This document shows, piece after piece, positions 39,006 through 61,955 of a DNA stretch of 64,000 bases. The stretch covers positions 34,708,388 through 34,772,387 of the forward strand of contig NC_092670.1 in the NCBI RefSeq assembly GCF_964355755.1, given 5' to 3'. The translations under genes were made by a program, and so were the position numbers. The first letter of the stretch is position 1. The number at the start of each line of letters is the position of its first letter. Under the pieces are notes generated by a model, which worked only from the letters and a program-made list of their open reading frames with translations, did not search any database and was not told the DNA's origin. The DNA is from Antedon mediterranea. Lineage: Eukaryota > Animalia > Echinodermata.

Positions 39006-40775
39006 TCAATCAATTACATTAAAACTAGAAACGTACATGTCATTATTAAACTTAAGCACAAAATGTTTAGTTTTCTTTTCTTGGTTGCTATATTTCTCGG
39101 TACATAACAATTCCAGCTGGTTGCTTGTTGAAGGTGGATCATCATCTTTAATTTCATAATAGATTTCCTCATCATCCATTTGTTCTACCTTCTTTTTGTT
39201 TGTAGTTGGTTGTGATTTCTCACTTTCTTTAATGTTGTAATATTCTTTTCCTTCCTCTTGCTTGCTTGTAGAAGCTTCTTCATTCACTTCATTGATATTA
39301 TTGTTGCTTTCTTGCTCATTTTCCGTTATCTTTTCTCCCTTCTTTGAAGGTATCTCACTATCTTTAACATTATACATTCTTTCACCTTCTGTTTTATCTA
39401 GTTCCCTTTTTAAGGTTTTGATAGTATCATCATGTTGACTCTGCTTCACAGTTTGTGAATGTACATAGTGTTTTATTTTAAGTGTATACATCAATACTAG
39501 TAAAAGTATCATTAACAGTATCCCAGTTGTAGTTGCAAGTATAATAATAGTTATATCCTTATCATTGTGATTCAACTGTTGATGTGTAGTTGCTGTTGGC
39601 ACAATATCTTTGACTGTGAATTCCATTTCATCAAACCTCTTCTGGACATCAGTACTCACCAAACATGTTACAGTGTAATTACCAGCTGGTAAATTGTTAA
39701 AGCATCTTTCATCATTCTCTTGGTTGTCATCAACGTATGTAATAGGTTCTTCTCCATTCAAACTCCAATTGTAAATTGTCTTATTACCAGATCCACCTTC
39801 TGTGTAGCATTTGAAGCAATTTGCATCCACATGAACTTCTGGTGATTTGTAAAACCTTTTTATTTTCACAATCAATTTAGGAAGAGAAGTAGTTTTAAGT
39901 CTATGATCTTTGACTGTAAATTTCATCTCTTCATATTTTTTCTGTACATCAGTACTCACAAGACACTTGACAGTGTAATTTCCAGCTGGTAAATTGTTAA
40001 AGCATCTTTCATCCTTCTCTTGGTTGTCACCATCCTCAGTAATTTTCTTTCCATTCAATGTCCAATTGTAAATTGTCTTATTACCAGATCCACCTTCTGC
40101 ACAGCACTTGAAGCAATGTGTACTCGCATGCGGTAGTTTAGGTGTTTTATGCAATATTTTTACAATTAATCGAGGGTAAACCTTTAGTATCAATGTGTAG
40201 CACTCGAAAGATACATGTTGGGCGAAACTTGTGAAGCAATAAAAGAATATACCATCTCCAGCTTGGAAACCAGTCAATGTCTGACTAATACTTAAGCTAC
40301 TGCTATTAACATTATATGACTGCATATTGATATATCTTCCTTGGATCCATCCTATTGTTAATTCTTTTGTGTTTACTCGAGTGTATTTCTTGATGCATGT
40401 GATTTTTAATTCTTCATCTTTTTCAATGTTTTTAAAATGTTCACATTCAAGATACATAAACTTTTTAGTTGAGATTTTGGTAACTTCTGCTGAAGGAACC
40501 AAATAATGCTTATTCTCGTCATCTTGACATGCGTATATTCCTACACTTTGTTGTTCATTGAAATATATAAACAGATTACAGTTCACTGTATTATTGTTAT
40601 CAGGATGTTTTCCTTTAAACTGTTTGCTTGATGGTAATACTGCTGGATAGCGCATATATGATGTATCCAAGCAATCATATAGCCACCATAGAACAGCGCC
40701 TTCTACAATGATATTACTGACATTCAAGAAGCAAACCACTGCTATGAAGTTGAGGATAACTTGTGACCTGGTCAT
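39006..40775 (-). CDS. Receptor copy A: type I membrane protein with intronless CDS, Ig-like ectodomain (two copies of the membrane-proximal domain) and Tyr-motif tail, 589 aa
   Basis: Uninterrupted ORF. Signal peptide MTRSQVILNFIAVVCFLNVS; Ig-like motifs NLFIYFNEQQSVGIYAC, LKITC..IGW..GDGIFFYC and 2x FKC..EGGSGN.TIYNW.LNG..AGNYTV.CLVS; TM ITIIILATTTGILLMILLLVLMYTL followed by KIKH; tail motifs MYNV, EYYNI, EEIYYEI. Confidence 0.85.
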   Translation of the reverse strand: MTRSQVILNFIAVVCFLNVSNIIVEGAVLWWLYDCLDTSYMRYPAVLPSSKQFKGKHPDNNNTVNCNLFIYFNEQQSVGIYACQDDENKHYLVPSAEVTKISTKKFMYLECEHFKNIEKDEELKITCIKKYTRVNTKELTIGWIQGRYINMQSYNVNSSSLSISQTLTGFQAGDGIFFYCFTSFAQHVSFECYTLILKVYPRLIVKILHKTPKLPHASTHCFKCCAEGGSGNKTIYNWTLNGKKITEDGDNQEKDERCFNNLPAGNYTVKCLVSTDVQKKYEEMKFTVKDHRLKTTSLPKLIVKIKRFYKSPEVHVDANCFKCYTEGGSGNKTIYNWSLNGEEPITYVDDNQENDERCFNNLPAGNYTVTCLVSTDVQKRFDEMEFTVKDIVPTATTHQQLNHNDKDITIIILATTTGILLMILLLVLMYTLKIKHYVHSQTVKQSQHDDTIKTLKRELDKTEGERMYNVKDSEIPSKKGEKITENEQESNNNINEVNEEASTSKQEEGKEYYNIKESEKSQPTTNKKKVEQMDDEEIYYEIKDDDPPSTSNQLELLCTEKYSNQEKKTKHFVLKFNNDMYVSSFNVID

Positions 40776-42175: not shown

Positions 42176-43345
42176 CTACTTCTGATGTATCAATTGAAAC
42201 GTACATTTTTCACACACAGCTACCCAATTCTTTCGGTAACAATGTTGATCACGCCAAGCACCACCATGGCGCTTAAACAGAGCAGCACAATTATTACCGT
42301 TACTAAGTTTGGGCTGGCCTTGTTGCCAATCTGAAAGATTAATTACGACTTTTAAGGACTAGTAGAAAAGAAATAAAGTCTTAAAATGATCATGTAACTT
42401 TCATTTATTTAGAGAAGTGAGTAACATACTTTTAAGTTTAATAACTTCCCATTGGGCATATACAAAATTGATAAACATGGATTGAAAAAATATTAATTTT
42501 AATTTTTTAATCTGAAAGTGATATTTATTATTCGTATGAAAGCTGTTTCTTCAGATTTTTTAATTTATGAGCAAAATATCAAAAGAACTGAATAAAAGAA
42601 TAAAAACAAACGTACTTTCATAACTTGATGTGTTTAACATCCACTCAAATATGCCATCTCTATCTATATCATCAATGTAGCCAATCCATGAGGCATTTGA
42701 TGTGGAATCTTCAGTGAGTCTCTGAAGTACCCACATGTTTTCACTTTCACTTGAAATTTCAACCAAATTACTTTTCAAACGCTGGCATTTTTGCGACATG
42801 TTTAGCCACGTACCAGAAGTGTTTGTGACCCAGTAGCATTTGGAAAATGAGGCATTGTAGTGCCATCCTGTTGGACAACCTGTAAATAAATTATGATTTT
42901 AATCGACCTTTTTGACAGACTGAAGTTTAAAAAAACTGTTCCGAAGATAATAAATAATAATTGCTTCTTTACATTGTTCTTAGCATCAGTGCCATAATGT
43001 CTTTCACTGGCTAAAGCCAGAGACACCAGAGCTACAGTAAGAGGTCCTTAGAGGCTCTTTCCCCCTGTGTAGCACCACTGCTATTGTATACGATTTGTCC
43101 TTCAGGTCAAAGGTTAAACTTTATTGCATTTATTCGATAATTATCCGATTTGAATTAGATAATTATCGATTAAATTTCTCGAGTTGAATTGGTTAGACCC
43201 CGTTTCCACAGGTATTTTATCGGTTAATTATCAGTTAATTTTATCGGTTAATTTTTGACTGCGGAAAAACAGCCTGTTACTCACCACAGGTAATGTAATA
43301 TGTAACAGCCAAATATGACAGTACTGCAAGTCCTCTCAGTTCCAT
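42176..43345 (-). CDS. Secreted single-domain C-type lectin-like protein (about 159 aa)
   Basis: Coding exons 43285-43345 (signal MELRGLAVLSYLAVTYYITCG), 42616-42879 (CPTGW..KCY..W....KC....SNLVEISSESEN..SWIGY....GIFEW) and 42176-42330 (NWQQGQPK..NCA..GAWRDQHC....VCEK). GT-AG junctions, both phase 1; upstream UTR-exon donor near 43916. Confidence 0.88.
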
Positions 43346-44697
43346 TTACATAAATTTTAAATTCTGTAAATATAAAAAAAAAGGAGGAGGGGGCTAGCTA
43401 GACAATAATCATATTCTTTAGATAAAAATTTGTGGAGCTGTGTTGTCGACTCACGTTATCGATTCTCATCTGCACATTGCGTTTGTGGCACCACTATTAG
43501 TGACACTGACAACCACTTTATAAAACAGGATTAATTAGAGAGCTTTCACAAAATACGTAATTTTAGCTTCAGGAAATTTTCATTTAGATTTTATATTTCC
43601 TAGACTCTAAAGCTAGACAATTCAGCTATTAAAATGTGTTGTTTAATTGTAATTTAATTAATTAATAAACTAGTATGTTTGCCTGTGAGATGCCGGTGGG
43701 ATTTTACGAAATCCCACCGGGAATTATGGTCGGGATTCCCGGTGGGATCCTGGGAAGATCCCGCCGGGATTTCCGATTGTTTTTTTACCCAGGTATGCCT
43801 GTGAAAACATAAAATCCATTTCACATCTATAATGTTCAGTAGTCACATCAGTCAGTTTGTGGTGTCACGATTAAAAAGTAATAATGTTTAATAAAATAAA
43901 CTATTAATAAACTTACGTCAAAGATTGGTTCATCTAGCTAACAGCTACACTTTGTTAGTTCTTGTTATGTTGTTGCCGGTTGGTCTCCTCTGTACCACTT
44001 CGTTATTTTCTGGTAAAGTCTAGCAGGAAAACAACTGACTAGCTGTTTACTAGATGAAGCTGTTTATAGTTGGTTTAACTATTACTACTTTGAAACCAGA
44101 TGAAATTGTTTCACACTTTTAAATGATTAAATAATTTAATATAAAATGAATGAATGGTTAGATGAACACATGAATGAGCAAGAAGCAGGGGGAAAATGGA
44201 CACAAATATGAATTAAGGAATAAATCAAGCGTTGGGATCTACATACCCTTAAATTGCTGTAAAAGGTGAAAAATGACCAAGTCACTGCTGCTTATAAAAA
44301 TTTGATATGGTTCTTTCATGAACATACTCTTTGCTGAACAAAAACTAGGTGTATGACCATTCATTCAATTGTAACTTGAAACTTCATGTTTAATTAGAAG
44401 TTTATTACAAATAAATTATTTAATCAATAATGTCATTGAACAGTGTTACTGAGACATTGCTTCAGTTTTTTGTCTGTACTTGCGTCAAAGTCAGTCAACC
44501 ATGAATCCTCTCGAATTATAAGCTGTTTTGATTTTATGCGACACGATTGCATATCCATTGTCTTTATCTCTAATATCCATTTTTGCAAGGGGACACTTGA
44601 AATGAACGAATGACAAATATGTTTTAATAGTACAAAAAAAATGAATTTAATGCAAATTGTGGGTGTCACACAGGTATATTATAATGTGCAATAATTT

Positions 44698-45959
44698 CTA
44701 ATACATAAACACTCCTAAATACCAGGTACGCCACATGAGTGTTTCACATCTATATATAAATACTCCTTAATACCAGGTATGCAACTTGAGTGTTTCACAT
44801 CTATACATAAACACTCCTAAATACCAGGTACGCCACATGAGTGTTTCACATCTATATATAAATACTCCTTAATACCAGGTATGCAACTTGAGTGTTTCAC
44901 ATCTATACATAAACACTCCTAAATACCAGGTACGCCACATGAGTGTTTCACATCTATACATAAACACTCCTAAATACCATGTACGCCACATGAGTGTTTC
45001 ACATTAATATATAAACACTCCTAAATACCATGTACGCCACATGAGTGTTTCACATCTATATATAAACACTCCTAAGTACCAGGTACGCCACATGAGTGTT
45101 TCACATCTATACATAAATACTCCTAAATACCAGGTACGCCACATGAGTGTTTCACATCTATATATAAATACTCCTAAATACCAGGTACGCCACATGAGTG
45201 TTTCACATCTATATATAAATACTCCTAAATACCAGGTACGCCACATGAGTGTTTCACATCTATATATAAATACTCCTAAATACCAGGTACGCCACATGAG
45301 TGTTTCACATCTATATATAAACACTCCTAAATACCAGGTACGCCACATGAGTGTTTCACATCTATATATAATACTCCTAAATACCAGGTATGCAACTTGA
45401 GTGTTTCACATCTATATATAAATACTCCTAAATACCAGGTACGCCACATGAGTGTTTCACATCTATATATAAACACTCCTAAGTACCAGGTACGCCACAT
45501 GAGTGTTTCACATCTATACATAAATACTCCTAAATACCAGGTACGCCACATGAGTGTTTCACATCTATATATAAATACTCCTAAATACCAGGTACGCCAC
45601 ATGAGTGTTTCACATCTATATATAAATACTCCTAAATACCAGGTACGCCACATGAGTGTTTCACATCTATACATAAACACTCCTAAATACCAGGTACGCC
45701 ACATGAGTGTTTCACATCTATATATAAATACTCCTAAATACCAGGTATGCAACTTGAGTGTTTCACATCTATATATAAATACTCCTAAATACCAGGTACG
45801 CCACATGAGTGGTTCACATCTATATATAAATACTCCTAAATACCAGGTATGCAACTTGAGTGTTTCACATCTATACATAAATACTCCTTAATACCAGGTA
45901 TGCAACTTGAGGTGTTTCATATCTATACATAAAAACTCCTTAATACCAGGTATGCAACT
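44698..45959. repeat. 51-bp minisatellite, about 25 copies, two interleaved unit variants
   Basis: Unit CTATATATAAATACTCCTAAATACCAGGTA(CGCCACA/TGCAACT)TGAGTGTTTCACAT. Confidence 0.97.
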
Positions 45960-47889: not shown

Positions 47890-48590
47890 AGCTTTATCAT
47901 CTATTTCATCTTCAAGTACTGCTTCTGGTTGTCTGTTGTTGCTTGTTGATGATCTCTCATTGTCTTCATCTTTGAATTCAATACTTTATTCATTTATTTT
48001 ACTATTAGAAATCTTGACATCTTCCATTTCATCAGTGTTATACATCGCATTATACATGATCTGTGAAGTTGTTTGAGAATCTGCTTGTCTGTTGTTGCTT
48101 GTTGATGGTCTCTCATTTTCTTCATCTGTGAAATCAACACTGTATTCATTTATTTTAATATTAGAAATCTTGACATCTTCCATTTCATCAGTGTTATACA
48201 TTGCACACATGATCTGTGAAGTTGTTTGAGAATCTGCTTGTCTGTTGTTGCTTGTTGATGGTTTCTCATTGTCTTCATCTGTCAATTCAATACTGTATTC
48301 ATTTATTTTAATGTTAGAAATCTTGACATCTTCCATTTCATCAGTGTTATATATAGCATTATACATGATGTGTGAAGTTGTTTGAGAATCTGCTTGTCTG
48401 TTGTTGCTTGTTGATGGTTTCTCATTGTCTTCATCTGTCAATTCAATACTGTATTCATTTATTTTAATGTTAGAAATCTTGACATCTTCCATTTCATCAG
48501 TGTTATATATAGCATTATACATGATGTGTGAAGTTGTTTGAGAATCTGCTTGTCTGTTGTTACTTGTTGATGGTCTCTCATTGTCTTGGA
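47890..48590 (-). repeat. 156-bp coding tandem repeat in the tail of copy B (4 units plus a partial fifth past the stop)
   Basis: TGTGAAGTTGTTTGAGAATCTGC recurs at 48527, 48371, 48215 and 48062. Confidence 0.95.
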
Positions 48591-49785
48591 TCTCATAATA
48601 GATCACTTCACTGTCTGTCTGTTGGTTTCTTGAGATTTGTCGAATTGTCACATTGTGTCTTTGTTGTATTGCATTGATCTCTGGAATTTCAATGTCACTT
48701 TCTCTATCACTGTCAGTGTCACTATTTCTATGATAATATATGTTTTGTGGTTTGTTGTGATGCTTTCTTTTTTGTTGGTATAGCAACATAATGACAAGAA
48801 ACCCAAATATGGTTGTCAATGTTGCCAATAGTATATTTGTTATCTCAATTGTTGGTGTTGCATATGGCGTAGTTGTTAGGGATGTGCAGGGATGAACAAA
48901 AAAATCTATTTCATCAGACCTGTTCTGTACATCAGTACTCACCAGACACTTGAGAGTGTAATTACCTGCTGGCAAATTGTTAAAGCATCTTTCATCATTC
49001 TCCTGGTTGTCACCATCTTCTGTAAGTTCTTCTCCATTTAAAGTCCAATTGTAAATTGTACTAGTACCAGATCCACCTTCTGTGTGGCATTTAAAACAAT
49101 GGACTTCTGGTGTTTCCATATGAACTTCCTGTGTTTTGTACTGTCTTCTTATTTCCACAATTAATCGAGGATGAACAGTCAGTATCAATGTGTAGCACTG
49201 ATAGGTTGTGTATGTGGTGAAATCATCTATGGAACAGCAAAAGAATACACCATTTCCAGCTTGGAAACCAGTCAAAGTTAGGTTAAAAATTAACATACTA
49301 CTTTGTAAATCATCATATAACTCCATATTTACATATTGTCCTTGGATCCATCCCATTGTTATTGTTAATGGGTTAAATGTATATTTTAAAAAGCATGTGG
49401 CTTGTATTTCCTCGTCTTCAATGATATTTTCAAAGTTTTTACACCTAAAAGTAGTACGCCCAAAATCTAAATCTGCAATCCAATTTGCTTCAGCAGAAAC
49501 CACGTAGTGTTTATTCTTATCATCTTGGCATGTGTATAAACCTGCATTTTGTTGTACATTAAAATATATAAACAGATTACAGTTCACTGTATTATTCTTG
49601 TCAGGAAATTTTCCATCAATTTGACCTCTGAACTGTTTATTTGATGGTAGTATTGCTAGATGATAAATATGTGATGTATCATTACTTGTATAATTCCAAT
49701 ATATGAAACCTTCTACAGTTGTATTACTGACATCATGGACAAAAATCACCGCTACAAGGATGAGAACAAGTGATGACCTGGCCAT
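47986..49785 (-). CDS. Receptor copy B: Ig-like type I receptor with intronless CDS and four about 52-aa Tyr-containing tail repeats, 599 aa
   Basis: Intact ORF paralogous to A. TM ITNILLATLTTIFGFLVIMLLY then QQKRK; motifs VIYYEI, IMYNAI x2, IMYNAM, EYSIEL. 5'UTR acceptor TTTCTGTTTCAG ends at 49979. Confidence 0.85.
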   Translation of the reverse strand: MARSSLVLILVAVIFVHDVSNTTVEGFIYWNYTSNDTSHIYHLAILPSNKQFRGQIDGKFPDKNNTVNCNLFIYFNVQQNAGLYTCQDDKNKHYVVSAEANWIADLDFGRTTFRCKNFENIIEDEEIQATCFLKYTFNPLTITMGWIQGQYVNMELYDDLQSSMLIFNLTLTGFQAGNGVFFCCSIDDFTTYTTYQCYTLILTVHPRLIVEIRRQYKTQEVHMETPEVHCFKCHTEGGSGTSTIYNWTLNGEELTEDGDNQENDERCFNNLPAGNYTLKCLVSTDVQNRSDEIDFFVHPCTSLTTTPYATPTIEITNILLATLTTIFGFLVIMLLYQQKRKHHNKPQNIYYHRNSDTDSDRESDIEIPEINAIQQRHNVTIRQISRNQQTDSEVIYYEIQDNERPSTSNNRQADSQTTSHIMYNAIYNTDEMEDVKISNIKINEYSIELTDEDNEKPSTSNNRQADSQTTSHIMYNAIYNTDEMEDVKISNIKINEYSIELTDEDNEKPSTSNNRQADSQTTSQIMCAMYNTDEMEDVKISNIKINEYSVDFTDEENERPSTSNNRQADSQTTSQIMYNAMYNTDEMEDVKISNSKINE

Positions 49786-50689
49786 TATACAATGCCTTCA
49801 CCTCTTTCAATCTTTTGATTTTAGTAAACCTTTTCTATTCTTGATATAATAATACATCAATTATAGAATGCCTTCACCTCTTTTAAGTAAATGTCTCCTG
49901 ATCTTGTGTGAATATTTCCAGTTACCAATCTTGTAATACACAATAAAATGAACCTTACAGAAATAAATTGTGATGATTCTGAAACAGAAACAAACTCTAG
50001 TGCTTGCTTGTGGTTGGTAACAAATTATTATCTTATTTCTTGATCTTGTATTAAATATAGATACAACGTATAATCTTGTTATCTGTGATCAAAAGTCGCT
50101 TAAAAATAATCGTTATCGTAATATTCTAATGTTTCATAAAATATAGAAACAAAAAGTACTAGATGACAGTTTTAAAGCAAATTTTACATTTAATATTTAT
50201 AATATGAATTATTTGTTTGATATTAACAATGGTGACATGATAAAAACATTAAATCTTGAAAAATACAAATCAAAACATTAATTTTTAAATCATAATTGAT
50301 CTCAGCATGAATCATTATAAATAAAGATCAAATCATTAAATCATGATAATAAAAGGTCACAGCATTGGATAATGATAATAGAGATCAAATCATTAAATCA
50401 TGATAATAAAGATCACAGCATTAAATCATGATAATAAAAGATCACTGCATTTAATAATGATAAAGATCACAGCATTAAATCATGATAATAAAGATCAAAA
50501 CATTAAATCATGAAAAATATTGATGAAAACATTAAATCATGATAATAAAAAATAACAGCATTGAATCATGATAAAGATCACAGCATTAAATCATGATAAT
50601 AAAGATCAAAACATTAAAGCATGAAAAATATTGATGAAAACATTAAATCATGATAATAAAGATCACAGCATTAAAAATCATGATAATAA

Positions 50690-51608
50690 CGCCCGTATTC
50701 TTAAACCGGACTTTAGTCGTAGTTCGAAGTTCGACTTGAAAAAGTCGTAGTTCGAGCTATTACTTCAAATTCGATTAAAAAAAAGTTTGCAGTTCGACTT
50801 AATGAAGTCGAGCTTTTAGTCGAGTTGCACACGTCTGGGTAACAAAGGCTATACATTGGCCAATGACAAGAGAGTATTTGAGGAGCAGACGAAATTTTGC
50901 GCATTGATATCACTTTCCATTTTCTTACAACACTTTTTACGCATCAGGACTATATACATGAAAAATAATTTTAATCGTTAATTATTAGAACAAGATCAGT
51001 ATTAATTTAACAGTGAAGTATATTTGATTAACAACAAACAAAATCTTCAAACTATATTTAGGAACCATGGCGGTACGGTAACTTTTATATTTTCTAGGCC
51101 CCCAACAAAGTATGATCGCGACAAACCACGCACTTCATAGCGTGACAAGAAAGCGCTAGGCCCCCTAAACATTCCATCACGTGGTGAATTTCCGCATCTG
51201 CCATTGTCGCTAATGGCGTGACGTAGTTCAAGTTGGACTTGCGCGAAGAAAATAATGTAATTTGTATACGGTTGTAAATAAAGATGATTTTCATTATTAT
51301 AACTTATACCAATGTATATTTAATTAAGCTAATATAAAAATAGATATTTCATTCTTCCAATATCTGGCCAATATAACAACTCAATGACTGTTACGTTTTT
51401 TATAAACATCGTTTAAAAACCATTTAGTCGACCATTTAGCCTGCTCCCTCCAGGACTAAAAAAATTGATCAAAATCCGTCTCGATTTAGTCGAGGTTGGC
51501 CTGATTTAGTCGGTGATTTAGTTGAAGTTCGGTTTATGAATTAAAATGACGTCACTTTTTTAGTTTTAGCTCGAACTACGACTAAAGTCCGGTTTAAGAA
51601 TACGGGCG
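50690..51608. mobile_element. PIF/Harbinger-like MITE in the 5'UTR intron of copy B
   Basis: Perfect 38-bp TIR CGCCCGTATTCTTAAACCGGACTTTAGTCGTAGTTCGA, TAA TSD (50687-50689 and 51609-51611), absent from the paralogous intron of copy C. Confidence 0.9.
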
Positions 51609-52362
51609 TAAGAATACGGGCGTAAAAGATCACAACATTGATTAATGATAATAAAGATAACAGCATTAAATCATTATAGTAAAATGTCACAGCATTGAAT
51701 AATGATAATAAAGATCACAGCATTATAAATCATGATAAAAAAAATCACAGCATTGAATATCATGATCATGACACTGAATCATGATAAATATAGATTGAAC
51801 GAAGCATTGTCAAGACCACTCTCAGTTAAACCTTCATAAAGGTGTAGCCCATCATTGTCGCCCATAAATGATCCATTATTGTTTGGTTTACAGTATAGAT
51901 ATTGATACTGATCGATACAACTGAAGAGTATACACCAAAAGCTAATTAATGTGTTTGTTTAGATTGTTTGATATTCTACTCGCCAGAAAGTGGTTTTACA
52001 GCACTTCCTTGAAGTGCTGTTGTCTTTTTTTTATTATGTTGTCAATAGGGACTTTACGAAACACGACCGTTAGGGGATGACGACAAATATCCTGTGTTTG
52101 CTAGAGAGCGTAAAATCATATACAGTCAACATAGCCATTTTATTAGTTACACACCTTTGCGCGAAAGACGACGACCAACAGTATCTCTCTCCCTCCCCTG
52201 TGTCGCGGCGTGGGACCCTTGCTTGGCTCTGGTGGAACAGCATAGGCCTAGCCTTCCTAGCTAGGAGCCTCCCATTCAAACGCCGTGCAGAATGTATTGC
52301 TTTTAACACAGCCATTTTAACCTAATAAAGCGTTATATTGTTAAACAATTAAATTAGAAGTT

Positions 52363-53742
52363 TTTTTGTTTATTGTATTCATAAATGATATGGTTGATAA
52401 TATCAAATCTAATATTAGTTTATATGCAGATGATACTTCGTTATATGATATTTGTACAGATCGTAATATTTCAGAACAAAAATTAAATGGTGATCTTAAT
52501 GTCATTTATAATTGGGCAAAAAAATGGAAAGTAACATTCAATGCTAACAAAACGAAAGCTATACTGTTTACACGTAAACATTTAGATAACTATGTTAGTT
52601 TAAATTTCAATAATGTAAATCTACAATTTGTAAATGATCATAGGCATCTTGGTGTAATGCTTAATGCAAAACTCAAGTGGGATTCCCATATCCAATCTGT
52701 AATTAACAAAGCGTCTTTATCTTTAAATATGCTACGTCGTGTCAAACATATTCTACCTCGACAGGCTCTCTGTCACATTTACATATCACACGTTAGACCA
52801 TTAATGGAATATGCAGCTCCTGTTTGGTGTAATATCCCAGATAAATTAAGTGATGAACTAGAAAATATCCAGATTTCTGCAGGTAGAATATGTACTGGTG
52901 CGTGGAAACATACAAGTCATAATGCATTAAGACAAGAATTAGGCTGGTTATCATTGGAAAAACGTAGACAATTTCTTAACCTAATACTGTTTTTTAAAAT
53001 TATTCATAAGTTAACACCGGTGTATCTTTACTCCTTATTTAATTTTTCTGACAATATTGAAGTTTATAACTTGCGTAACATCCGAAATATAATAATTCCA
53101 TTTTGTAAGACCACATCATATCGTTTATCTTTTGTCCCATCTATTATAACACATTGGAATGAGTTAAATAATGAAATAAAAAATTCCTCATTTCTTGTTG
53201 AGTTTAAAAAATTGCTACTGAAATCCAATTTGTTGGAAACAAAAAAACGTTCTTATTATGAAACGGGTGATAAGAAGATTAACCAAATTCACACTAGAAT
53301 CCGACTTGGTTTCAGCTGTCTCAATTCGCATTTATTCTTACATGGACTTCGGGACAATCCAAATTGTACTTGTGGCTTTAATGTTGAGAATCCGCTTCAT
53401 TTCTTATGTTACTGCCCTAATTATAATACACAAAGAGATATTCTACTTGTAAGCGCTAACTCAATTATTGAGGATATCTTAGCCAAGGATTTTTCTTTAA
53501 CATTTAATTTTACATTTTTAAGTGAAATTTTTATTTTTGGTTCCGATCTTCTTTCGAATTGTGAAAATGCTTTATTATTTTATTATGTACAACAATTTCT
53601 TGTTAATTCTGGAAGATTTAATTGATGTTTCTGTTAGTTGTTTTAAAATGTTGTATTTGTTAATCTGAGGCGCCTTGAAGCTAAGATGGTTCCATCTTGT
53701 AAGGCGCCTCTGTGTAATATACTGAATAAAAAAAAAATAAAA
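52363..53742 (+). mobile_element. 5'-truncated non-LTR retrotransposon (CR1/Jockey-group-like RT C-terminus), recent insertion
   Basis: Open 419-aa ORF with FIVFINDM, LYADDT, HRHLGV and a C-terminal Cys/His knuckle (CTCG..E...HFL..C). 3' hairpin at 53668-53710, poly(A) tail, and a 12-bp TSD AAATTAGAAGTT at 52351-52362 and 53743-53754. Confidence 0.93.
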
Positions 53743-53884
53743 AAATTAGAAGTTAAAATATTATTTAGAGTTTTGAAATTTCCACGTTTAAGTGTAATTT
53801 GAACTGTATATTTAAGGTTTAGTACATTATTTCTATTCGTTCTCTGAAAATGGAAACTTTATCGTCTTTAAAAAGTTAAGACTT

Positions 53885-54197
53885 TTTTTTGTTTGTTTTA
53901 TCTTTATACTGGGTGACCTCTTCAGTCAAAGACTGATCTCCCAGAGGGCCCAGTTGGTAATTAGTGGCTGTTATGTACTAATACACCGAGGTAACCCCCT
54001 ACTCGTCTCGAAAGATGTACTAGGTTCTTTAAAGTGCACACGAGCAAGTTGTGTACACTGGACCTACGGTTTATAGTCCTTATCCGAGAAGACTCGTTCT
54101 ACCACCAGAACCATGGAGTGAGTGAGCCTTGAACCCCTGCCGATGTTATGGTTACGTGATTACGGTTCCACTATCTTAACCGCTTGGCCACTCACTC
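53885..54197 (-). mobile_element. tRNA-derived SINE, same family, full length
   Basis: Box A TGGCCAAGCGG, box B-like GGTTCAAGGCT, core GGATAAGGACTATAAACCGTAGGTCC...GAGTAGGGGGTTACC and A-rich tail. Confidence 0.85.
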
Positions 54198-54768
54198 AAC
54201 GACGACGGAATTTCACGCTAAGCTCCTCCCAATTTGTTAAAGCTCATGCATAAATTATTCATGAGAACCATTCTGTGGCTTCCCGTCGTGTTTTGTAAAG
54301 AAGAACATGAAAATGTGGTTGTTTTTTTTTGGTTTTTTCGCATACTAATATTAAATATCAAGTCAAGTACACTTTTGCACAATAAAAAAAAAAATCCAGA
54401 AAAATATGTGGATTTTGGTAGTATATTCATCTGTGGTAGCAAAGTGAAGAAGAAAAAAGAAGATTCAAGTACAAAGTAATGTGGTGTTCTGCATCATTTC
54501 AAATGTTGTTTATTTTTGGTTTTTTTTTCTTCCTTTCTAAACTATATTTAAACATGATGAAAAAGCAATTTTATTGTCTATTCTAGAGGTGTGTTCTGGG
54601 TGACTTTATTTTTGTCAACCCACAGTTTTCTACAAAATGTTATATCAAAGCAGTGATGCATATTTACAGTAGGCAATGAAATGCTAATTTTTTTTTCAAA
54701 TTTCATACTACAAATATTTCATATTTACATTTTCTGCTGCTTGCTTGTCGATGGTTCATCTGTGACAT

Positions 54769-56341
54769 TCATACTTCCTCCAGATGTTCATCTTCCTTTT
54801 GCTGTCTGCTTGTTAAGGGTTCATTTTTTAATTCAATACTGTGTTTATTTATTTTAATATTAGAAATCTTGACATCTTCCATTTCATCAGTGTTATACAT
54901 CGCATTATACATGATGTGTGAAGTTGTTTGAGAATCTGCTTGTCTGTTGTTGCTTGTTGATGGTCTCTCATTGTCTTCATCTGTGAAATCAACACTGTAT
55001 TCATTTATTTTACTATTACAAATCTTGACATCTTCCATTTCATCAGTGTTATATACCGCATTATACATGATCTGTGAAGTTTTGAGAACCTGCTTATCTG
55101 TTGTTGCTTGTGGATGGTCTCTCATTGTCTTTGATCTCATAATAGATCACTTCACTGTCTGTCTGTTGGTTTCTAGAGGTTTGTCCAATTGTCACATGGT
55201 GTCTTTGTTGTACACCATTGACCTCTGGAATCTCACTGTCGCTGTCACTGATGTCATTATTTCTATGATAATATACGTTTTGTGGTTTGTTGTGATGCTT
55301 TCTTTTTTGCAGGTAAAGCAATAGAATTACCAGAAACCCAAATAAGGTTGTCGATGTTGCCAATAGTCTAGTTTTTAAGCCAATTGTTGATGTTGTTAAG
55401 CCAGGGACTCCTTCATTTGCTACTAAAATGGATGTGCAGGGTTGAACAAAAAAATATATTTCATCAGACGTGTTCTGTACATCAGTACTCACCAGACACT
55501 TCACACTGTAATTTCCAGCTGGTAATTTCTCAAAGCATCTTTCATCATTCTCCTGGTTGTCATCATCCTCTGTAATAAGTTCTTCACCATTTAAAGTCCA
55601 ATTGTAAATTGTAGTATTACCAGATCCACCTTCTGTGTGGCATTTAAAACAATGGACTTCTAGTGTTTCCATATAATTAACCTCTGGTGTTTTGTACCGT
55701 CTTCTTATCTCCACAATTAATCTAGGATGAACAGTCAGTATCCATGTGTAGCACCGATATTTGTTGAAATCATATATCCAACAAAAAAATAATACACCAT
55801 CTCCAGCTTGGAAACCAGTCAAAGTTAGGTTAAAAATGAACATACTACTTTGTATAAAATCATCATATAACTCCATATTTACATATTGTCCTTGGATCCA
55901 TCCCATTGTTACTCTTAATTCGTTAAATCTATGTTTTAAAGAGCATGTGACTTGTATTTCCTTGTCTTCAATGATGTTTTTAAAGTTACACCTAATACTA
56001 GTAGATAAAATATCTAAAACTGGGTACCAGTATACTTTAGCAGAAACCGCCACCACATAGTGTTTATCCTCATCATCTTGACATGTGTATAATCCTTGAT
56101 TTTGTTGTACATTAAAATATATTAGCAGATTACAGTTCACTGTATTATTCTTTACAGGAAATTTTCCATCAATTTGACCTTTGAGCTGTTTACTTGAAGG
56201 TAGTATTGCTAGATGATGAATATGTGATCTAACCTCAGTTTCATCCCAATTCCAATATATAAAGCTCTTTACAGTTGTGTTACTGACATCGTGGAGAAAA
56301 ATCACTGCTACAAAGATGAGAATAAGTGATGACCTGGCCAT
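54769..56341 (-). pseudogene. Receptor copy C: ectodomain and TM intact (ORF 55094-56341, 415 aa), tail cut by a nonsense codon and a frameshift; pseudogene or short-tailed variant
   Basis: CAA>TAA at 55094-55096 relative to copy B, then a 2-nt loss at about 55083. Two further tail repeats continue in another frame to 54769. Confidence 0.75.
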
Positions 56342-56719
56342 TATGCAGTACCTTTATCGCTTTCAAGTAAATTTCTCCTGATCTTGTGTAAATATTTCCA
56401 GTTACCAATCTTGTAATACACAATAAAATGAACGTTACAGAAATAAATTGTGATGATTCTGAAACAGAAACAAACTCTAGTGCTTGCTTGTGGTTGGTAA
56501 CAAATTATTATTTTATTTCTTGATCTTGTATTAAATATAGATACAACGTATAATCTTGTTATCCGTGATCGAAAGTTGTTAAAATATAATCGTTATTGTA
56601 ATATTCTATAGTTTCATTAAATATAGAAACAAAAAGTACTAGATGAAAGTTTTAAAGCAAATTTTACATTTAATATTTATAATATGAATTATTTGTTTAA
56701 TATTAACAATGATTACATG

Positions 56720-57290
56720 ATAAAAACATTAAATCACGAAAAATACAAATCAAAACATTAATTTTAAATCATAATAATGATCTCAGCATGAATCATCATA
56801 AATAAAGATCAAATCATTAAATCATAATAATAAAAGATCACAGCATTGGATAATGATAATAAAGATCAAATCATTAAATCATGATAGTAAAAGATCACTG
56901 CATTAAATCATGATAATAAAGATCACAACATTAAATCATGATAATAAAGATCAAAACATTAAATCATGATAAAGATTAAAACATTAAATCATGATAATAA
57001 AGATTAAAACATTAAATCATAATAATAAAGAACAAAACATTAAATCATGATAAAGATTAAAACATTAAATCATGATAATAAAGATCAAAACATTAAATCA
57101 TGATAAAGATTAAAACATTAAATCATGATAATAAAGATTAAAACATTAAATCATGATAATAAAGATTAAAACATTAAATCATGATAATAGGGATCAAAAC
57201 ATTAAATTATGATAATAAAGATCACAGCATTATAAAACATGATAATAAAAAATCACAGCATTGAATATCATGATCATGACACTGAATCAT
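56720..57290. repeat. Degenerate 25-30 bp AT-rich tandem repeat (AAATCATGATAATAAAGATCACAGCATT-like) in the receptor 5'UTR intron; paralogue at 50290-50688 and 51625-51790
   Basis: Read directly; copy number differs between B and C. Confidence 0.85.
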
Positions 57291-57314
57291 GAAAAATATA
57301 ATTATATTTCTATG

Positions 57315-57875
57315 CTATGTTAGTGACGATATCGTGTAAATTGTAAGTTGGAAACCAGTCAAAGTTAGGTTAAAAATTAACATACTACTTTGTAAATCAT
57401 CATATAACTCCATATTTACATATTGTCCTTGGATCCATCCCATTGTTACTGTTAATGTGTTAAATCTATGTTTTAAAAAGCATGTGACTTGTATTTCCTT
57501 GTCTTCAATGATGTTTTTAAAGTTGTTACACCTAATACTAGTACTCAAAATATCTATATCTGCGATAGACCCTGCTTCAGCAGAAACCACATAGTGTTTA
57601 TCCTCATCATCTTGACATGTGTATAATCCTGCATTTTGTTGTACATTAAAATATATAAACAGATTACAGTTCACTGTATTGTTCTTGTCAGGAAATTTTC
57701 CATCAATTTGACCTTTGAACTGTTTACTGGAAGGTAGTATTGCTAGATGATGAATATGTGATCTAACCCCATTTTCATTCCAATTCCAATATATGATGCC
57801 TTTTACAGTTGTGTTACTGACATCATGGAGAAAAATCACTGCTACAAAGATGAGAATAAGTGATGACCTGGCCAT
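57315..57875 (-). pseudogene. Receptor copy D: 3'-truncated fragment (signal peptide + N-terminal Ig-like region, no TM)
   Basis: Homology to B/C stops at LTGFQ (about 57348) and runs into the 5'UTR intron of copy C. Upstream homology ends about 10 nt before the ATG, at 57885. Confidence 0.8.
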
Positions 57876-58786
57876 TATGCAGTACAGTGGGACAGCCAGT
57901 CGACAAATCGTTTCAAATTTCGACTCGGAGAGGGCGCCCTACTTTTCTAATTTAGTTCAAAATTGCTAAATTTTAGGGTGTTGGAAAAACACAATATTTG
58001 TAAATTTAGCTGATTATCGGAAAAATATTGTTAGTGAAATAAATTCATAAATGGTTTTAATATATATACATGTAAAATTAAATGTATTTGAACAAAACGA
58101 TAATCTGTAATTTAACGGCAAAATCAACCAATGTCTTTTTTCCGAAATTGCACCCTAGAAAATCATTAAAATAAAACATTTAGAAAAATTGAACAGTCCT
58201 GAATTTAAAATCCCTGTTAGAAAAATTAATAATCTACAGAATACGATATTAAGATACAAAATTCGGTGGTTGGGATGCAGCTCCGATTATTCAAACTAAA
58301 GGTACCACTATTTGTTCCATCGAAAACTAGCGAAACCGCCATTTTGTAAACACATCGTCATCGTGTTTATGAATTTATTTATAGCGAACGATATACGCGA
58401 TGTTTATAATTGTCCGCGTATAAGAATTCATATAAATAAATACATTCCAATACAACGTATATATTACTTGTTTATTTATCTCAGTATACATTTTAGTTGA
58501 GGAATATTTATCATAACTATTATAATAGCTTTTATACGAGTCCGAGGCCTAGCCCTATTAGCGAGCGATTGTTCCAGGGGCGGAAAGTCACTTAGTGACG
58601 TTGTGATCGGGCGCGTCGGGCCTAGCTAATATTAATAATATATGACCTGAAATAAGCGGCTAACAAGAACTGTTATATACTTGCTTACAATTGTTTTGTT
58701 ATTGATGAACAAACAAGCAATTAGATTGAATAACAAATTGTTTATTCATTTTTTTTGGGTAAAAACATGTACAAACTAGTACTGTA

Positions 58787-60224
58787 TCTATATATAAATT
58801 TACGTAAGGGCAAAAATCGGTAAATCGAGCGTTATTTCTAGAATGTTTACTCGATCGTATATAAAGTTGGTTAGAATCTCGGTACTGATTTTAACCACCT
58901 GATGTAACCCTGTTTACTAATTAAATTGAGTTAGATAATTAGTTATTGACAATTAAAACGAATTTAGGTTCAACGATTTGCCCCAAATAGGGGTGTTTTT
59001 CGATCGTGGTATACACTGTCTAATGGATGTCCGTCTTGAAAAATACCCGAAGACAATAATACGAGGATGCTTCGCATTTTCCTATCTCCTCCTACGATAA
59101 TTGTTTTTAATGGCTGAAAACCGGTTGAACAGCTCGAGTACAGCATCATAATGTTGAAGACAGGCCGATTTTCTTTAAAAAATACTATTTTGATAGATTT
59201 AATATACGTTTATATAAATGTATTGATTTGCGATGAATGGAACATTCCAATCTCTGTTACACAAGTGTCTATTCCCTCAGGCGTCGTAAAGGCAAGTACT
59301 GTATACTCATAACAGAAATTCGATCCATTTTTTCCCAATCTGTTCTGCAGAGGTTGGATATAATTTTTTTTAAACAGATAATGAGCTAGCGTTTTCAGTC
59401 GCCGTATATTATGTACAAATCTTTATTATTGCATTTAAACCACCCACATCATCACCCTTTCCTCACTGGCATGAGTAGCGTTGTAAACCAAGAGGATAAG
59501 CCTATACGGTGCATCACATGCCCTAAACGCAGAACAACTTTGGTGGGTAGGGTAGGAACCAACTTAATTATGAATTGGCTCTAAGAAACAATTGAAAACC
59601 ATTGGGCCTACTAATTAAGTTGAGTTAGATAATTTAATATTTATTGACGATTAAATCGAATTTATGATTTTCCCCGAATAGAGGTGGTTTTCACAAATTG
59701 TTTAACATTATATATAAACATACGTCATCATAGTGTATCGTTACATGTACTGTACTATTTCAATCGACTACGACGGTGATAGTTTCAACAAAGTATTACA
59801 TCATCGCAATGTTTTACTGTGTTTAGTGGTATATTATTTGTAAAACATGAAAACAATTAATATTTCGTTACAAAATAAAGAATATTTTTAAAATTGTTCC
59901 TCTTTGCACCCATCCTCTTCCCCATCCCTCAACCATAATGTTACATACAAAACACAAAATATGTTTGCTTAAATCTGACTTTTAAAACAATTGGTCTCAT
60001 TTTGTGACAAGTTTCTCTTTCGGAAGTAATTCCCAGGGTGCTAATTTTAGTTGAGTACATAAATCACAGTGTCTTTTTATTCGTTCCTGTAAACGACATG
60101 TATTATTGTCCTGCATTATTGTACATTTGAAATCGCCATTTTTTTTACGCTGAAATCATGTATTCGAGAACCATCTGTGGGCACGACCTAGATGGTACGC
60201 GAGCAAAGCGAGCGTGCCATCTAG
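58787..60224 (+). mobile_element. Non-autonomous Helitron-like element
   Basis: Begins A|TCTATATATA and ends with hairpin CTAGATGGTACGC..GCGTGCCATCTAG|T; no TIR or TSD. A second copy of its first about 83 bp lies at 60416-60498. Confidence 0.65.
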
Positions 60225-60523
60225 TAATATAAATTAATAGTAATATTAAACTAATACAGTATTAATAAAATATAAAATAGGCCTAACATACAATAAATAT
60301 TCAATTTTTAAGGTCTACCACATGACAATAACATATTTACAGGGTATAGTGTAGTAGGTTTGCATTCAACATAAATATTTGTATTGTAATTCATCTAAAT
60401 CCTCTGCAACATACATCTATATATAAATTTACGTAAGGGCAAAATTCGGTAAATCGCGCGTTACTTCTAGAATGTTTACTCGATGGTATATAAAGTTGAT
60501 CAGATCACCAGGCTAGGCCGGCC

Positions 60524-61955
60524 TTCACCATTTAAAGTCCAATTGTAAATTGTAGTATTACCAGATCCACCTTCGGTGTGGCATTTAAAACAATGGACTT
60601 CTAGTGTTTCCATATGAACCTCTGGTGTTACTGTTTTGTAAAGTCTTTTTATTTCCACAATTAATCGAGGATGAACAGTCAGTATCAATGTGTAGCACTG
60701 ATAGGTTATGTATGTGGTGAAATCACCTATAGAACAACAAATTACGTTGTTTTTAGAACTAACCAAAAGAACTTTGACAAAAACCAGTTTAAAATAAAAA
60801 TGAATAATGTGTTATTACATAGAAAAGAAAATGTGACATTTCTAGGTGTAATTTTAAACGAAAATCTTAACTGGAAACATCACATACAGCTTATTAGGAA
60901 AAAAATGTCTAGGGCAATTGGTATACTTTTAAAAGTAAGAGAATTCTTTCCTCATAAAGTCCGTATTAGTCTTTATAACACCTTAGTATTACCTCACCTT
61001 CTGTATGGTAACTTAATATGGGGAAATACATACAAGAGCATGTTAGAAGCAATACTAAAACTCCAAAAGAGATCTGTAAAATGCATTACCTTCTCTAAAT
61101 CCAGACAAGCCTCAGAGCCACTGTTTAAGAAACTAAAAATATTAAACGTTTATGATATTTACAAAGTAAACGTCATAGGATTTATGGCAAACGTAAAATT
61201 CAATGAATTACCACATCACATTTTAAATATTTTTAATTACTGTGACAGTATTAGGCCTACTCATAACCTCAGAACAGAAACTGAATTCGAAATTCCCTTC
61301 ACAAGACTAACTTGCAAAAAAACGAAGCTACACTGCTTTTTTATGCAGGATCCCTGTTTTCAGTTGTACTGTAATTATGATGTACTGTAAATGATGACTA
61401 AATAAATGTGGAATAAATGAAATAAATGAAAAGAATACACCATCTCCAGCTTGGAAACCAGTCAAAGTTAGGTTAAAAATTAACATACTACTTTGTAAAT
61501 CATCATATAACTCCATATTTACATATTGCCCTTGAATCCATCCCATTGTTATTGTTAATGTGTTAAATGTATATTGTAAATCTGTTGTGCATGTGACTTG
61601 TATTTCTTTGTCTTCAATGATGTTTTCAAAGTTTTTACACCCCAAAATCATCTGCGATCGAAATAATTGCTTCGGCAGATCTAACCACATAGTGTTTATC
61701 CTCGTCATCTTGACATGTGTATAATCCTACACTTTGTTGTACATTAAAATATATAAACAGATTACAGTTCACTGTATTATTCTTGTCAGGAAATTTGAAC
61801 TGTTTACTTGATGGTAGTATTGCTAGATGATGAATATGTGATGTAACCCAATTTTCATTCCAAATCCACATTATAACGCCTTCTACGGTTGTGTTACTGA
61901 CATCATGGAGGAAAATCACTGCTACAAGGATGAGAAAAAGTGATGACCTGGTCAT
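60524..61955 (-). pseudogene. Receptor copy E: frameshifted, LINE-interrupted and 3'-truncated
   Basis: Three pieces: 61635-61955, about 61430-61640 and 60524-60741. A 14-nt deletion at about 61640 relative to B shifts the frame, a LINE occupies 60742-61429, and homology ends at NWTLNGE (60524). Confidence 0.85.
60742..61429 (+). mobile_element. 5'-truncated LINE (CR1/L2-group RT C-terminal region) inserted in receptor copy E
   Basis: ORF segment with TFLGVILNENLNWKHHI, LYNTLVLPHLLYGNLIWG, LQKRSVK and SEPLFKKLKIL. The 3' end is short AATAAATG repeats; the flanks rejoin the receptor sequence GVFF|CCSI. Confidence 0.9.

Follow-up and report, generated by a model that had tools for sequence, protein, structure and literature searches.

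Variable patches around a predicted interdomain elbow in a tandem cluster of immunoglobulin-like receptor genes from the crinoid Antedon mediterranea

A stretch of 64,000 nucleotides of the Antedon mediterranea genome (NC_092670.1, positions 34,708,388 to 34,772,387; hereafter the window) contains a cluster of related genes in which an initial annotation recognised four short hypervariable patches within an otherwise conserved ectodomain. The question raised by this locus is whether the patches form a ligand-binding surface and, if so, where on the protein it lies and how it is diversified. The reading favoured here, to which we give roughly even confidence, is that these are single-ORF type I membrane protein genes in tandem, of a likely crinoid-specific immunoglobulin superfamily (IgSF) family, whose four patches are predicted to encircle the elbow between the first two domains and are likely a variable ligand-binding site, probably serving non-self recognition.

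The window holds five copies, of which three are open (A, B and C) and two are broken (D and E; Table 1). The genes are single ORFs for type I membrane proteins whose domains resemble those of the Ig superfamily and whose tails bear tyrosine motifs. In copy B a signal peptide is followed by three domains (D1–D3), a transmembrane (TM) helix and a tail with 52-residue repeats, the stop codon being a TAC-to-TAA change within the last repeat. Copy C has lost the repeat portion of the tail through a CAA-to-TAA stop and a frameshift. Copy D ends after the LTGFQ motif and hence lacks patch 4; unrelated DNA begins about 12 nt upstream of it, and it adjoins the satellite upstream of C. Copy E is truncated within D3, and the LINE-like fragment inserted in it matches an RVT_1-bearing ORF at 52366-53625 (E 4e-14). 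The fifth copy, A, is more distant than B–E are from one another and consists of a signal-like N-terminus, D1, D2, two D3 domains, a TM segment and an acidic tail. A C-type lectin gene lies upstream of copy A, and a direct splice from it into copy A is conceivable. For copy B an assembly artefact is excluded by contigs identical to parts of it (239 and 191 nt), from a run that may be the source sample itself.

Table 1. Features of the receptor gene cluster, in window coordinates; residue numbers are those of copy B.
Feature	Position	Strand	Description
Copy A	39006..40775	-	Intact single ORF, 589 aa
Copy B	47986..49785	-	Open single ORF, 599 aa
ITIM-consensus VIYYEI of B	48589..48606	-	Also present in C
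TM helix of B (res 318-336)	48778..48834	-	Uncharged
D3 of B (res 207-298)	48892..49167	-	Ig/PKD-like stalk domain with less variation; two in A
D2 of B (res 110-206)	49168..49458	-	Ig-like beta sandwich; Cys131, Trp146, Leu169, Phe182, Cys184
Patch 4 of B (res 183-197)	49195..49239	-	FG loop of D2, CDR3-equivalent position
Patch 3 of B (res 132-141)	49363..49392	-	BC loop of D2, CDR1-equivalent position
Patch 2 of B (res 97-115)	49441..49497	-	D1 G strand, interdomain linker and D2 start, by alignment
D1 of B (res 27-97)	49495..49707	-	Ig E-F motif L71, N80, G82, Y84, C86; fold uncertain
Patch 1 of B (res 27-38)	49672..49707	-	First strand of the mature protein and loop, around Trp30
Satellite and ~380-bp flank upstream of B	49860..50689	-	Duplicated upstream of C (56340-57280)
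Copy C	55094..56341	-	ORF of 415 aa; complete ectodomain, TM, one VIYYEI
Copy D	57348..57875	-	Fragment, signal peptide through LTGFQ; no TM
Copy E	60524..61955	-	Pseudogene with a LINE-like insert and, in patch 2 near 61640, a 14-nt deletion
LINE-like fragment	60743..61429	+	Inserted in copy E where patch 4 starts

The E-F motif of D1 matches the V-set spacing Leu89/Asp98/Tyr102/Cys104 (N80 is D in P0007), and D1 aligns with the V-set-positive domain of P0006 and with NCAM2 D1. The V-set Cys23 and strands A/A'/B were sought in D1 and not found; in B its sole cysteines are Cys69 and Cys86, the B-strand Cys being absent. The cleavage site, placed by eye, puts the mature N-terminus just ahead of Trp30 in A–E, P0002 and P0007. 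Modelled alone, D1 forms four strands (pLDDT 62) and matches no Ig structure; no structural match exceeded Z 4.4, the best obtained, and no atlas match exceeded 0.83. D2 retains the IgSF B-strand Cys, C-strand Trp, E-strand Leu and F-strand D-x-x-x-Y/F-x-C, its hallmark residues (Cys131, Trp146, Leu169, N/D178, Phe182 and Cys184) aligning with those of NCAM2 and CD22; Cys115 and Cys197 are additional. The D2 model has seven strands and superimposes on Ig-like sandwiches at Z 8-9.7 (VCAM-1 D2: Z 8.6, rmsd 2.5, 95 aligned), the top matches being generic β-sandwiches, a fold also found outside the IgSF. Confidence in the three-domain model is modest (mean pLDDT 66), and Foldseek with it returned only transglutaminase and complement sandwiches at rmsd >11 Å, an uninformative result. 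Pfam gave no Ig family above cut-off for A–D or for the single domains of B. All six sequence matches at E<=5 in a PDB profile search were IgSF members, among them CEA (1.4e-4), NCAM2 (1.7e-4) and CD22, and the atlas matches that carry Pfam families fall in Ig clans (0.90-0.92). The receptors likely belong to the immunoglobulin superfamily.

Among 1.84 billion representatives there were two matches with E<1e-30, both of them A. mediterranea proteins, and named close relatives are limited to uncharacterised proteins of this species. XP_071950092.1 and XP_071957072.1 are true homologs, 44-45% identical over D1–D3, whose patch loops are unrelated to those of the cluster; the former shares the layout of the cluster genes through the TM segment but lacks an ITIM consensus in its tail. 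Word-index protein searches matched none of 742 candidates, P0002 only among 7,843 and a single PKD-like protein, of bacterial origin, among 3,066; as they missed the known homolog P0001, they do not set the bounds of the family. From these comparisons the family is likely crinoid-specific, and it is presumably large. Contigs aligning to B numbered 119, 146, 73 and 147 in four runs from two organisms; run X11 gave none, which does not prove absence. No description of the family was found in the literature searched, whose coverage mostly excludes subscription journals.

The patches had been delineated from copies B–E, two of which (D and E) are broken, and all 16 of the peptide strings quoted for them were located in these copies on the minus strand. 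The alignment of B–E across B residues 23-206 has 191 columns, 71 of them variable, and the patches are genuine: 41 of 60 columns vary inside them versus 30 of 131 in the framework. Clustering is also evident when no patches are defined, with 63 runs of variable columns against 90 expected (p<5e-5; none of 20,000 permutations was as low) and a significant densest 15-column window (p=0.0005). A, P0001 and P0002, which played no part in defining the patches, show 11-25% identity in them versus 45-50% in the framework (Fisher p 1e-5 to 0.02). The description of the framework as nearly invariant was overstated (dN 0.048, dS 0.139). Nor are the indels confined to the patches, about half lying outside (near B residues 53, 116, 159, 217, 221 and 254), or always in frame, the patch-2 indel of E being a frameshifting deletion.

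The label ‘CDR-like’ suits patches 3 and 4, which are loops of D2, and fails for patch 2 at the D1–D2 junction and patch 1 on the N-terminal strand. In patch 2 the model residues for B100-110 have pLDDT <50. The antibody and TCR pattern, with BC, C'C'' and FG loops on one N-terminal V domain, is not matched. With the BC and FG loops on the second domain and patch 2 at the domain junction, the patches are predicted to surround the D1–D2 hinge, and their modelled positions suggest a site like that of Fc receptors and KIR, not an antibody tip. A variable recognition surface is plausible for the patches, which likely set what each receptor recognises.

The proposal of diversifying selection stands only in part, as site models are strongly significant but a fast class with omega about 1 fits better. 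The PAML M8 analysis suggested for these genes gives an M8a/M8 LRT of 51.5 (38.1 after masking indel-adjacent columns), M1a/M2a gives 51.6, and 16 of the 20 sites with posterior >0.8 lie inside patches. Patch dN (0.37) is ~8x framework dN and 2.7x framework dS (bootstrap 1.7-4.6), with a within-patch dN/dS of 1.43 (0.94-2.35) and, in patch 3, a dN of 0.245 versus a dS of 0.064; the framework, at omega about 0.3, is under purifying selection. The excess of patch dN over framework dS and the M8a/M8 result reject plain relaxation with an unchanging mutation rate. The selection models rest on 4-5 sequences. Taken at face value, these figures describe codon-by-codon diversifying selection on CDR-like loops, with no special role for exchange between copies, and M2a/M1a retains an LRT of 7.7-8.0 when multi-nucleotide changes are allowed. 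That account is nevertheless rather unlikely. In the better-fitting class dN and dS are both about 9-fold faster with omega about 1, an improvement over M2a of 4.1 lnL that has the same sign in 5/5 column subsets; the bootstrap rejects M2a as generating model, none of 18 M2a simulations giving the fast class an advantage >0, whereas 4.1 lnL was attained in 13 of 18 simulations under the fast class. Adding omega>1 to the fast class raises the LRT by 0.0-0.25 for B–E and about 2 for A–E, so that omega>1 is significant at constant dS and lost with a free-rate class. In many patch codons 2-3 of the positions differ, and false positives are known to arise from multi-nucleotide changes and from variation in the synonymous rate (PMC10336034, available text). 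A very strong M8 signal may vanish when block-like changes enter the model.

An omega of about 1 in the fast class would also be expected of unconstrained, drifting loops and linker with micro-indels and poor alignment, two of the copies being dead and the patches having no variable recognition function. In its favour, the model shows patch 2 as coil at low confidence, C has a cut tail in addition to the broken copies D and E, and indels occur in other loops and linkers as well. We regard such drift as improbable: by itself it does not yield a class at ~9x the framework synonymous rate, other D1/D2 loops are nearly invariant in DNA (B residues 142-182: 1-6 differences in 102-123 nt), and the open ORFs of A, B and C by themselves give the same patch excess. 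Counting against the preferred reading, a general rise of patch dS is contradicted by the parity of synonymous differences in same-amino-acid codon pairs (9/138 in patches versus 42/609 outside) and by a patch/framework dS ratio of 1.9 whose interval includes 1. In two near-B contigs the excess of patch changes was non-significant (p 0.06-0.15). Selection likely acts on the loops. A further alternative concerns what they bind, namely that the proteins serve as labels for self-recognition or adhesion, binding their own isoform, as in Hydractinia Alr, or a gamete partner, and are not microbe receptors. The general build is shared with Alr (clustered, single-pass, unusual V/I-set, some ITIMs; PMC9546547, available text), the profile matches to CEA and NCAM2 are to adhesion molecules, and a partner could complete the truncated D1. 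We find this quite unlikely, as no search returned a sequence link to Alr or FcoR. Crinoids are, to our knowledge, solitary, and we know of no fusion-rejection system described in them.

For the preferred reading, an elbow site with likely recognition function, we infer that the loops are swapped in multi-nucleotide blocks, most likely drawn from paralogs by gene conversion or unequal exchange. Selection would retain new loops and purge framework change, and the family would evolve through duplication and decay. The loose ends of contigs at patch borders, translated by hand, read as new in-frame loops. The 5' flank pairs B with C (7% versus 14-18%), unlike the coding tree, (B,E)(C,D), and copy E shows a mosaic pattern, closest to C/D in patch 1 and to B in patch 4. 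Recombination tests, which are confounded by clustering, placed 2 of 60 triplets past Bonferroni, and no donor tract for block replacement was identified. Homogenisation of the framework relative to the flanks is unsupported for B–C (framework dS 0.15 versus 5' flank 0.07). A bolder version, in which copying templated by paralogs or fragments (D, E) rewrites the elbow loops, also somatically in immune cells, in a large crinoid Ig repertoire built on a V domain without A/B strands, would imply an Ig receptor diversified at the level of the individual in an echinoderm; we consider it very improbable.

Besides VIYYEI, the tail of B has two ITIM-consensus matches (IMYNAI) within its repeats, a single match per tail being a weak signal (p about 0.11-0.13 by shuffling). 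The tail of A contains YYNI and YYEI, and no ITIM consensus is present in the tails of A and P0002. On the favoured interpretation, ligand engaging the elbow would cause the tail tyrosines (the ITIM-like VIYYEI in B and C) to be phosphorylated, followed by recruitment of SH2 proteins and probably an inhibitory output for B and C. All three open copies have an uncharged TM segment, so an adaptor-coupled activating form is absent from the window, a check that covers 3 members of a larger family.

This apparently undescribed crinoid family works like the variable receptor clusters of the KIR, CHIR and Alr type. The vertebrate leukocyte-receptor-complex families (KIR, LILR, chicken CHIR) and Fc receptors are likewise tandem clusters of type I Ig-domain proteins that include pseudogenes and have hypervariable regions and ITIM tails, and tandem paralogs, pseudogenes and clustered hypervariable ectodomain sites are all found here. 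The cluster differs from them in its one-ORF coding, truncated D1 and PKD-like D3 and in lacking a charged TM residue in A, B and C, and homology to KIR, LILR or CHIR was detected neither in 8 representatives (E<=0.001) nor in 6 PDB sequences (E<=5). We know of no MHC or IgG in echinoderms that could act as ligand. In the available text of the respective reports, CHIR comprises 103 loci, 41 pseudogenes and seven hypervariable regions (PMC1458963), and ligand binding in the KIR/Fc-receptor class involves loops from the two domains or the D1–D2 hinge (PMC3972465, PMC6433993). Hydractinia Alr, as far as the available text describes it, is similarly a lineage-specific single-pass IgSF cluster mostly missed by Pfam, whose members have additional cysteines and in some cases ITIMs (PMC9546547). 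In models of Alr domain 1 the V-set strands are retained and the canonical cysteines are missing, whereas D1 of the cluster keeps the F-strand Cys and lacks strands A/B. Botryllus Fester/FcoR, in the portion of the account available, has >35 IgSF genes, FcoR tails with ITIM/hemITAM and diversification by intergenic recombination, with spliced genes, cognate pairs and Sushi domains in FcoR (PMC12582321). In the crinoid cluster, by comparison, each gene is one ORF, variation is in short patches and no partner gene was identified. Single ORFs with four short patches make patch-swap binding tests simple. Echinoderm immune diversity is described mainly as expansions of TLR, NLR, scavenger-receptor and SpTransformer genes in sea urchins, and crinoids go unmentioned in the available text of that account (PMC13428168). 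If the favoured reading is true, the cluster would be a case of invertebrate deuterostomes arriving independently at the KIR/CHIR/Alr/FcoR design, with ITIM-like tails.

The window, whose GC content is ~32%, is animal DNA that carries short exons, satellites and LINE fragments; it contains a tandem array of five paralogs (A–E) of one receptor-like gene. Copies A, B and C share a layout of a signal-like N-terminus, an ectodomain, one transmembrane helix and an acidic tyrosine-bearing tail. In E, 14 nt are deleted in patch 2 (patches 1–4 are four short variable stretches of the ectodomain, the conserved remainder being the framework), a LINE-like insert lies where patch 4 starts and the third domain is truncated. 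A CAA-to-TAA stop truncates the tail of C after its first tyrosine motif, and a TAC-to-TAA change in the last tail repeat of B forms the stop of that copy.

A spliced C-type lectin gene (Pfam Lectin_C E 1e-6), with a signal exon and two lectin exons, lies between A and B and has the same orientation as they do; its possible last exon ends ~40 nt upstream of the A start codon. The AT-rich satellite found ~380–500 bp upstream of B and of C belongs to the duplicated unit. Upstream of B it is interrupted by a MITE-like element with inverted ends of ~30 bp or more; D breaks off just before the satellite upstream of C. A LINE fragment (Pfam RVT_1 E 3e-5) separates B from C. The 90-bp direct repeats (93% identical) flank ~1.6 kb between D and E, one of them ~20 bp from the truncation point of E. 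Long homogeneous minisatellites produce false ORFs on the plus and the minus strand alike. Left of the cluster, the closest conserved gene is marked by an ERCC3/XPB helicase exon (Pfam E 1e-14), a potential anchor for finding the syntenic region in other crinoids.

Features of the receptor cluster and its surroundings (window positions)
Feature	Position	Strand	Description
Copy A	39006-40775	-	open single ORF, 589 aa
Two D3 domains of A	39588-40200	-	
Copy B	47986-49785	-	open single ORF, 599 aa
Copy C	55094-56341	-	open single ORF, 415 aa
Copy D	57348-57875	-	fragment; ends at LTGFQ
Copy E	60524-61955	-	patch-2 deletion, patch-4 insert, third-domain truncation
Tail repeat	47924-48587, 54833-55131		156 bp (52 aa)
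C-type lectin gene	42200-43350	-	spliced
Satellite	50298-50689, 51622-51790, 56719-57274		28/57 bp
MITE-like element	about 50690-51620		roughly 900 bp
LINE reverse-transcriptase C-terminal fragment	52366-53625	+	open, 419 aa
Direct repeat	58786-58875, 60415-60504		90 bp
Minisatellite	44701-45952		51 bp x 24.5
Minisatellite	30726-31089		12 bp x 30
Minisatellite	25349-25605		16 bp x 16
ERCC3/XPB exon	33322-33690	+	

All 16 peptide strings quoted in the initial annotation are present in the window, and the clustering of variation that it described is confirmed: 41 of 60 columns are variable inside the patches versus 30 of 131 outside, and variable columns form 63 runs against 90 expected. The patches are the least conserved parts also in A and two database homologs, none of which was used to define them. 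The in-frame indels ascribed to the patches hold only in part, as indels also occur outside and the patch-2 indel of E is the 14-nt deletion.

No Ig family scores above the Pfam cut-off in the copies. The family profile matched six PDB sequences, all IgSF, among them CEA (E 1.4e-4), NCAM2 (E 1.7e-4) and CD22, and an atlas search gave Ig clusters at 0.90–0.92. The AlphaFold model (pLDDT 66, alignment of 10 rows) consists of three beta domains (D1–D3). D2 resembles Ig-like sandwiches (Z 8–9.7) and has Ig spacing (Cys131, Trp146, Leu169, Phe182 and Cys184, numbered as in B), while D3 is similar to both Ig and PKD-type domains. D1 contains the Ig E–F motif and starts at the Trp strand, without A/B strands, in every family member seen; folded by itself it gave no clear structural match. 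The patches had been called CDR-like, which the model bears out for patch 3 (D2 BC loop) and patch 4 (D2 FG loop) but not for patch 2 (D1 G strand, linker and start of D2) or patch 1 (D1 N-terminal strand). As the N-terminus, BC loop and FG loop of an Ig domain lie at the same end, patches 2–4 should meet at the D1–D2 elbow, the hinge between these domains. The family is not an antibody-like CDR system. A passage of PMC3972465 places the KIR/LILR site at the interdomain hinge, with six loops from both domains used by KIR2D.

The tail motif VIYYEI of B and C fits the ITIM consensus as used in a passage of PMC9546547, and two further matches occur in the tail repeats of B. Compared with shuffled sequences, a single match in a tail carries little weight (p 0.11–0.13), and the consensus is absent from A and the database homolog P0002; YYEI is kept in A. 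The tail tandem repeat (4.3 copies in B; 1.9 in C, now beyond its stop) multiplies tyrosine motifs.

Eight matches at E<=0.001 were found among 1.84 billion representatives: two strong ones, both uncharacterised Antedon mediterranea proteins (44–45% identity), and weak ones to two fish Ig-repeat proteins, one bacterial PKD protein and three unnamed sequences. These relatives suggest that the window derives from a crinoid. Words of B are shared with eleven public runs from four organisms. In four runs (organisms coded A and B) 73–147 contigs per run align to B, most of them <95% identical; these counts, which are not a copy number, suggest that the family has many members. The alignments often end at patch borders, where the unaligned ends, translated by hand, read as new in-frame loops (for example YCIFKTFSNS and CVSEMFGDGKA in patch 4, ADVVQYKSN in patch 2). 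A 6-nt patch-3 insertion in contigs of organisms coded B and C has the same position as that in E. Contigs of four runs also join D3 to another D3-like unit (joint at 49100); together with the two D3 domains of A, this makes a variable stalk length within the family probable.

Site models (GY94) were fitted to B–E using ((B,E),(C,D)), which scored best among three trees. M8 is favoured over M8a (LRT 51.5; 38.1 once indel-adjacent columns are masked), and of the 20 high-posterior sites 16 fall inside patches, but a mixture with a ~9 times faster class at omega=1, raised in both dN and dS, fits better than M2a. By counting, dN and dS are 0.048 and 0.139 in the framework and 0.375 and 0.263 in the patches; dN/dS within patches is 1.43 (0.94–2.35) and the ratio of patch dN to framework dS is 2.7 (1.7–4.6). 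The partition model gives omega of 0.32 versus 1.2, and with patch dS free the patch omega does not differ from 1 (p 0.60). Freeing omega of the fast class gains an LRT of 0.25 or less, and M2a/M1a falls to 7.7–8.0 when double and triple changes are allowed. The observed advantage of the fast class, 4.1 lnL, was reached in 13 of 18 data sets simulated under it, and none of 18 simulated under M2a favoured it; its sign is kept in 5/5 subsets and when the analysis is limited to the three open ORFs. Counting against the fast class, codon pairs for the same amino acid differ synonymously at an equal rate in patches (9/138) and outside (42/609), which places the surplus of synonymous change in multi-hit codons. 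The pattern could equally result from misalignment within patches. PMC10336034 describes inflation of selection tests by multi-hit changes and synonymous rate variation, and a passage of PMC1458963 names the counting method as the source of a moderate rise in synonymous counts in polymorphic regions of CHIR genes. From the model comparisons and simulations, the patches change faster than the local neutral rate, apparently in blocks; the diversifying selection proposed initially is not established as codon-wise positive selection by site models on B–E.

Sequence comparison gives moderate evidence that the copies are mosaic. Judged by their 5′ flanks, B and C belong together (7% divergence, versus 14% and 18% from E), whereas in the coding tree the sister pairs are B/E and C/D. 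E is closest to C/D in patch 1 (8–10 differences; 19 to B) and closest to B in patch 4 (4/45 differences versus 10/36). D has 2 unique framework changes versus 13 in C (p 0.007, outgroup B). Triplet recombination tests pass Bonferroni in 2/60 cases and are confounded by the clustering of variation; no donor tract was found.

The most likely reading, held with moderate confidence, is a crinoid family of Ig-type surface receptors evolving by birth and death, in which a variable elbow site would take non-self ligands, paralogs would diversify this site by exchanging blocks under selection, and tail tyrosines may carry the signal. Codon-wise selection alone would suit the M8 result and sits poorly with the block-like change, and we consider it doubtful. 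That the patches are unconstrained loops would agree with a patch omega near 1, and the faster-than-neutral change speaks against it; this is improbable, marginally more so than the unlikely case that the receptors serve self or gamete recognition.

No description of the family appeared in the literature searched; supplementary gene-family tables for crinoids may still include it. The family works like the KIR/LILR/CHIR, Hydractinia Alr and Botryllus FF/FcoR systems as a receptor cluster, with no homology shown to any of them. It is set apart from these known clusters by its single-ORF genes, a first domain that lacks A/B strands and variation centred on the elbow.
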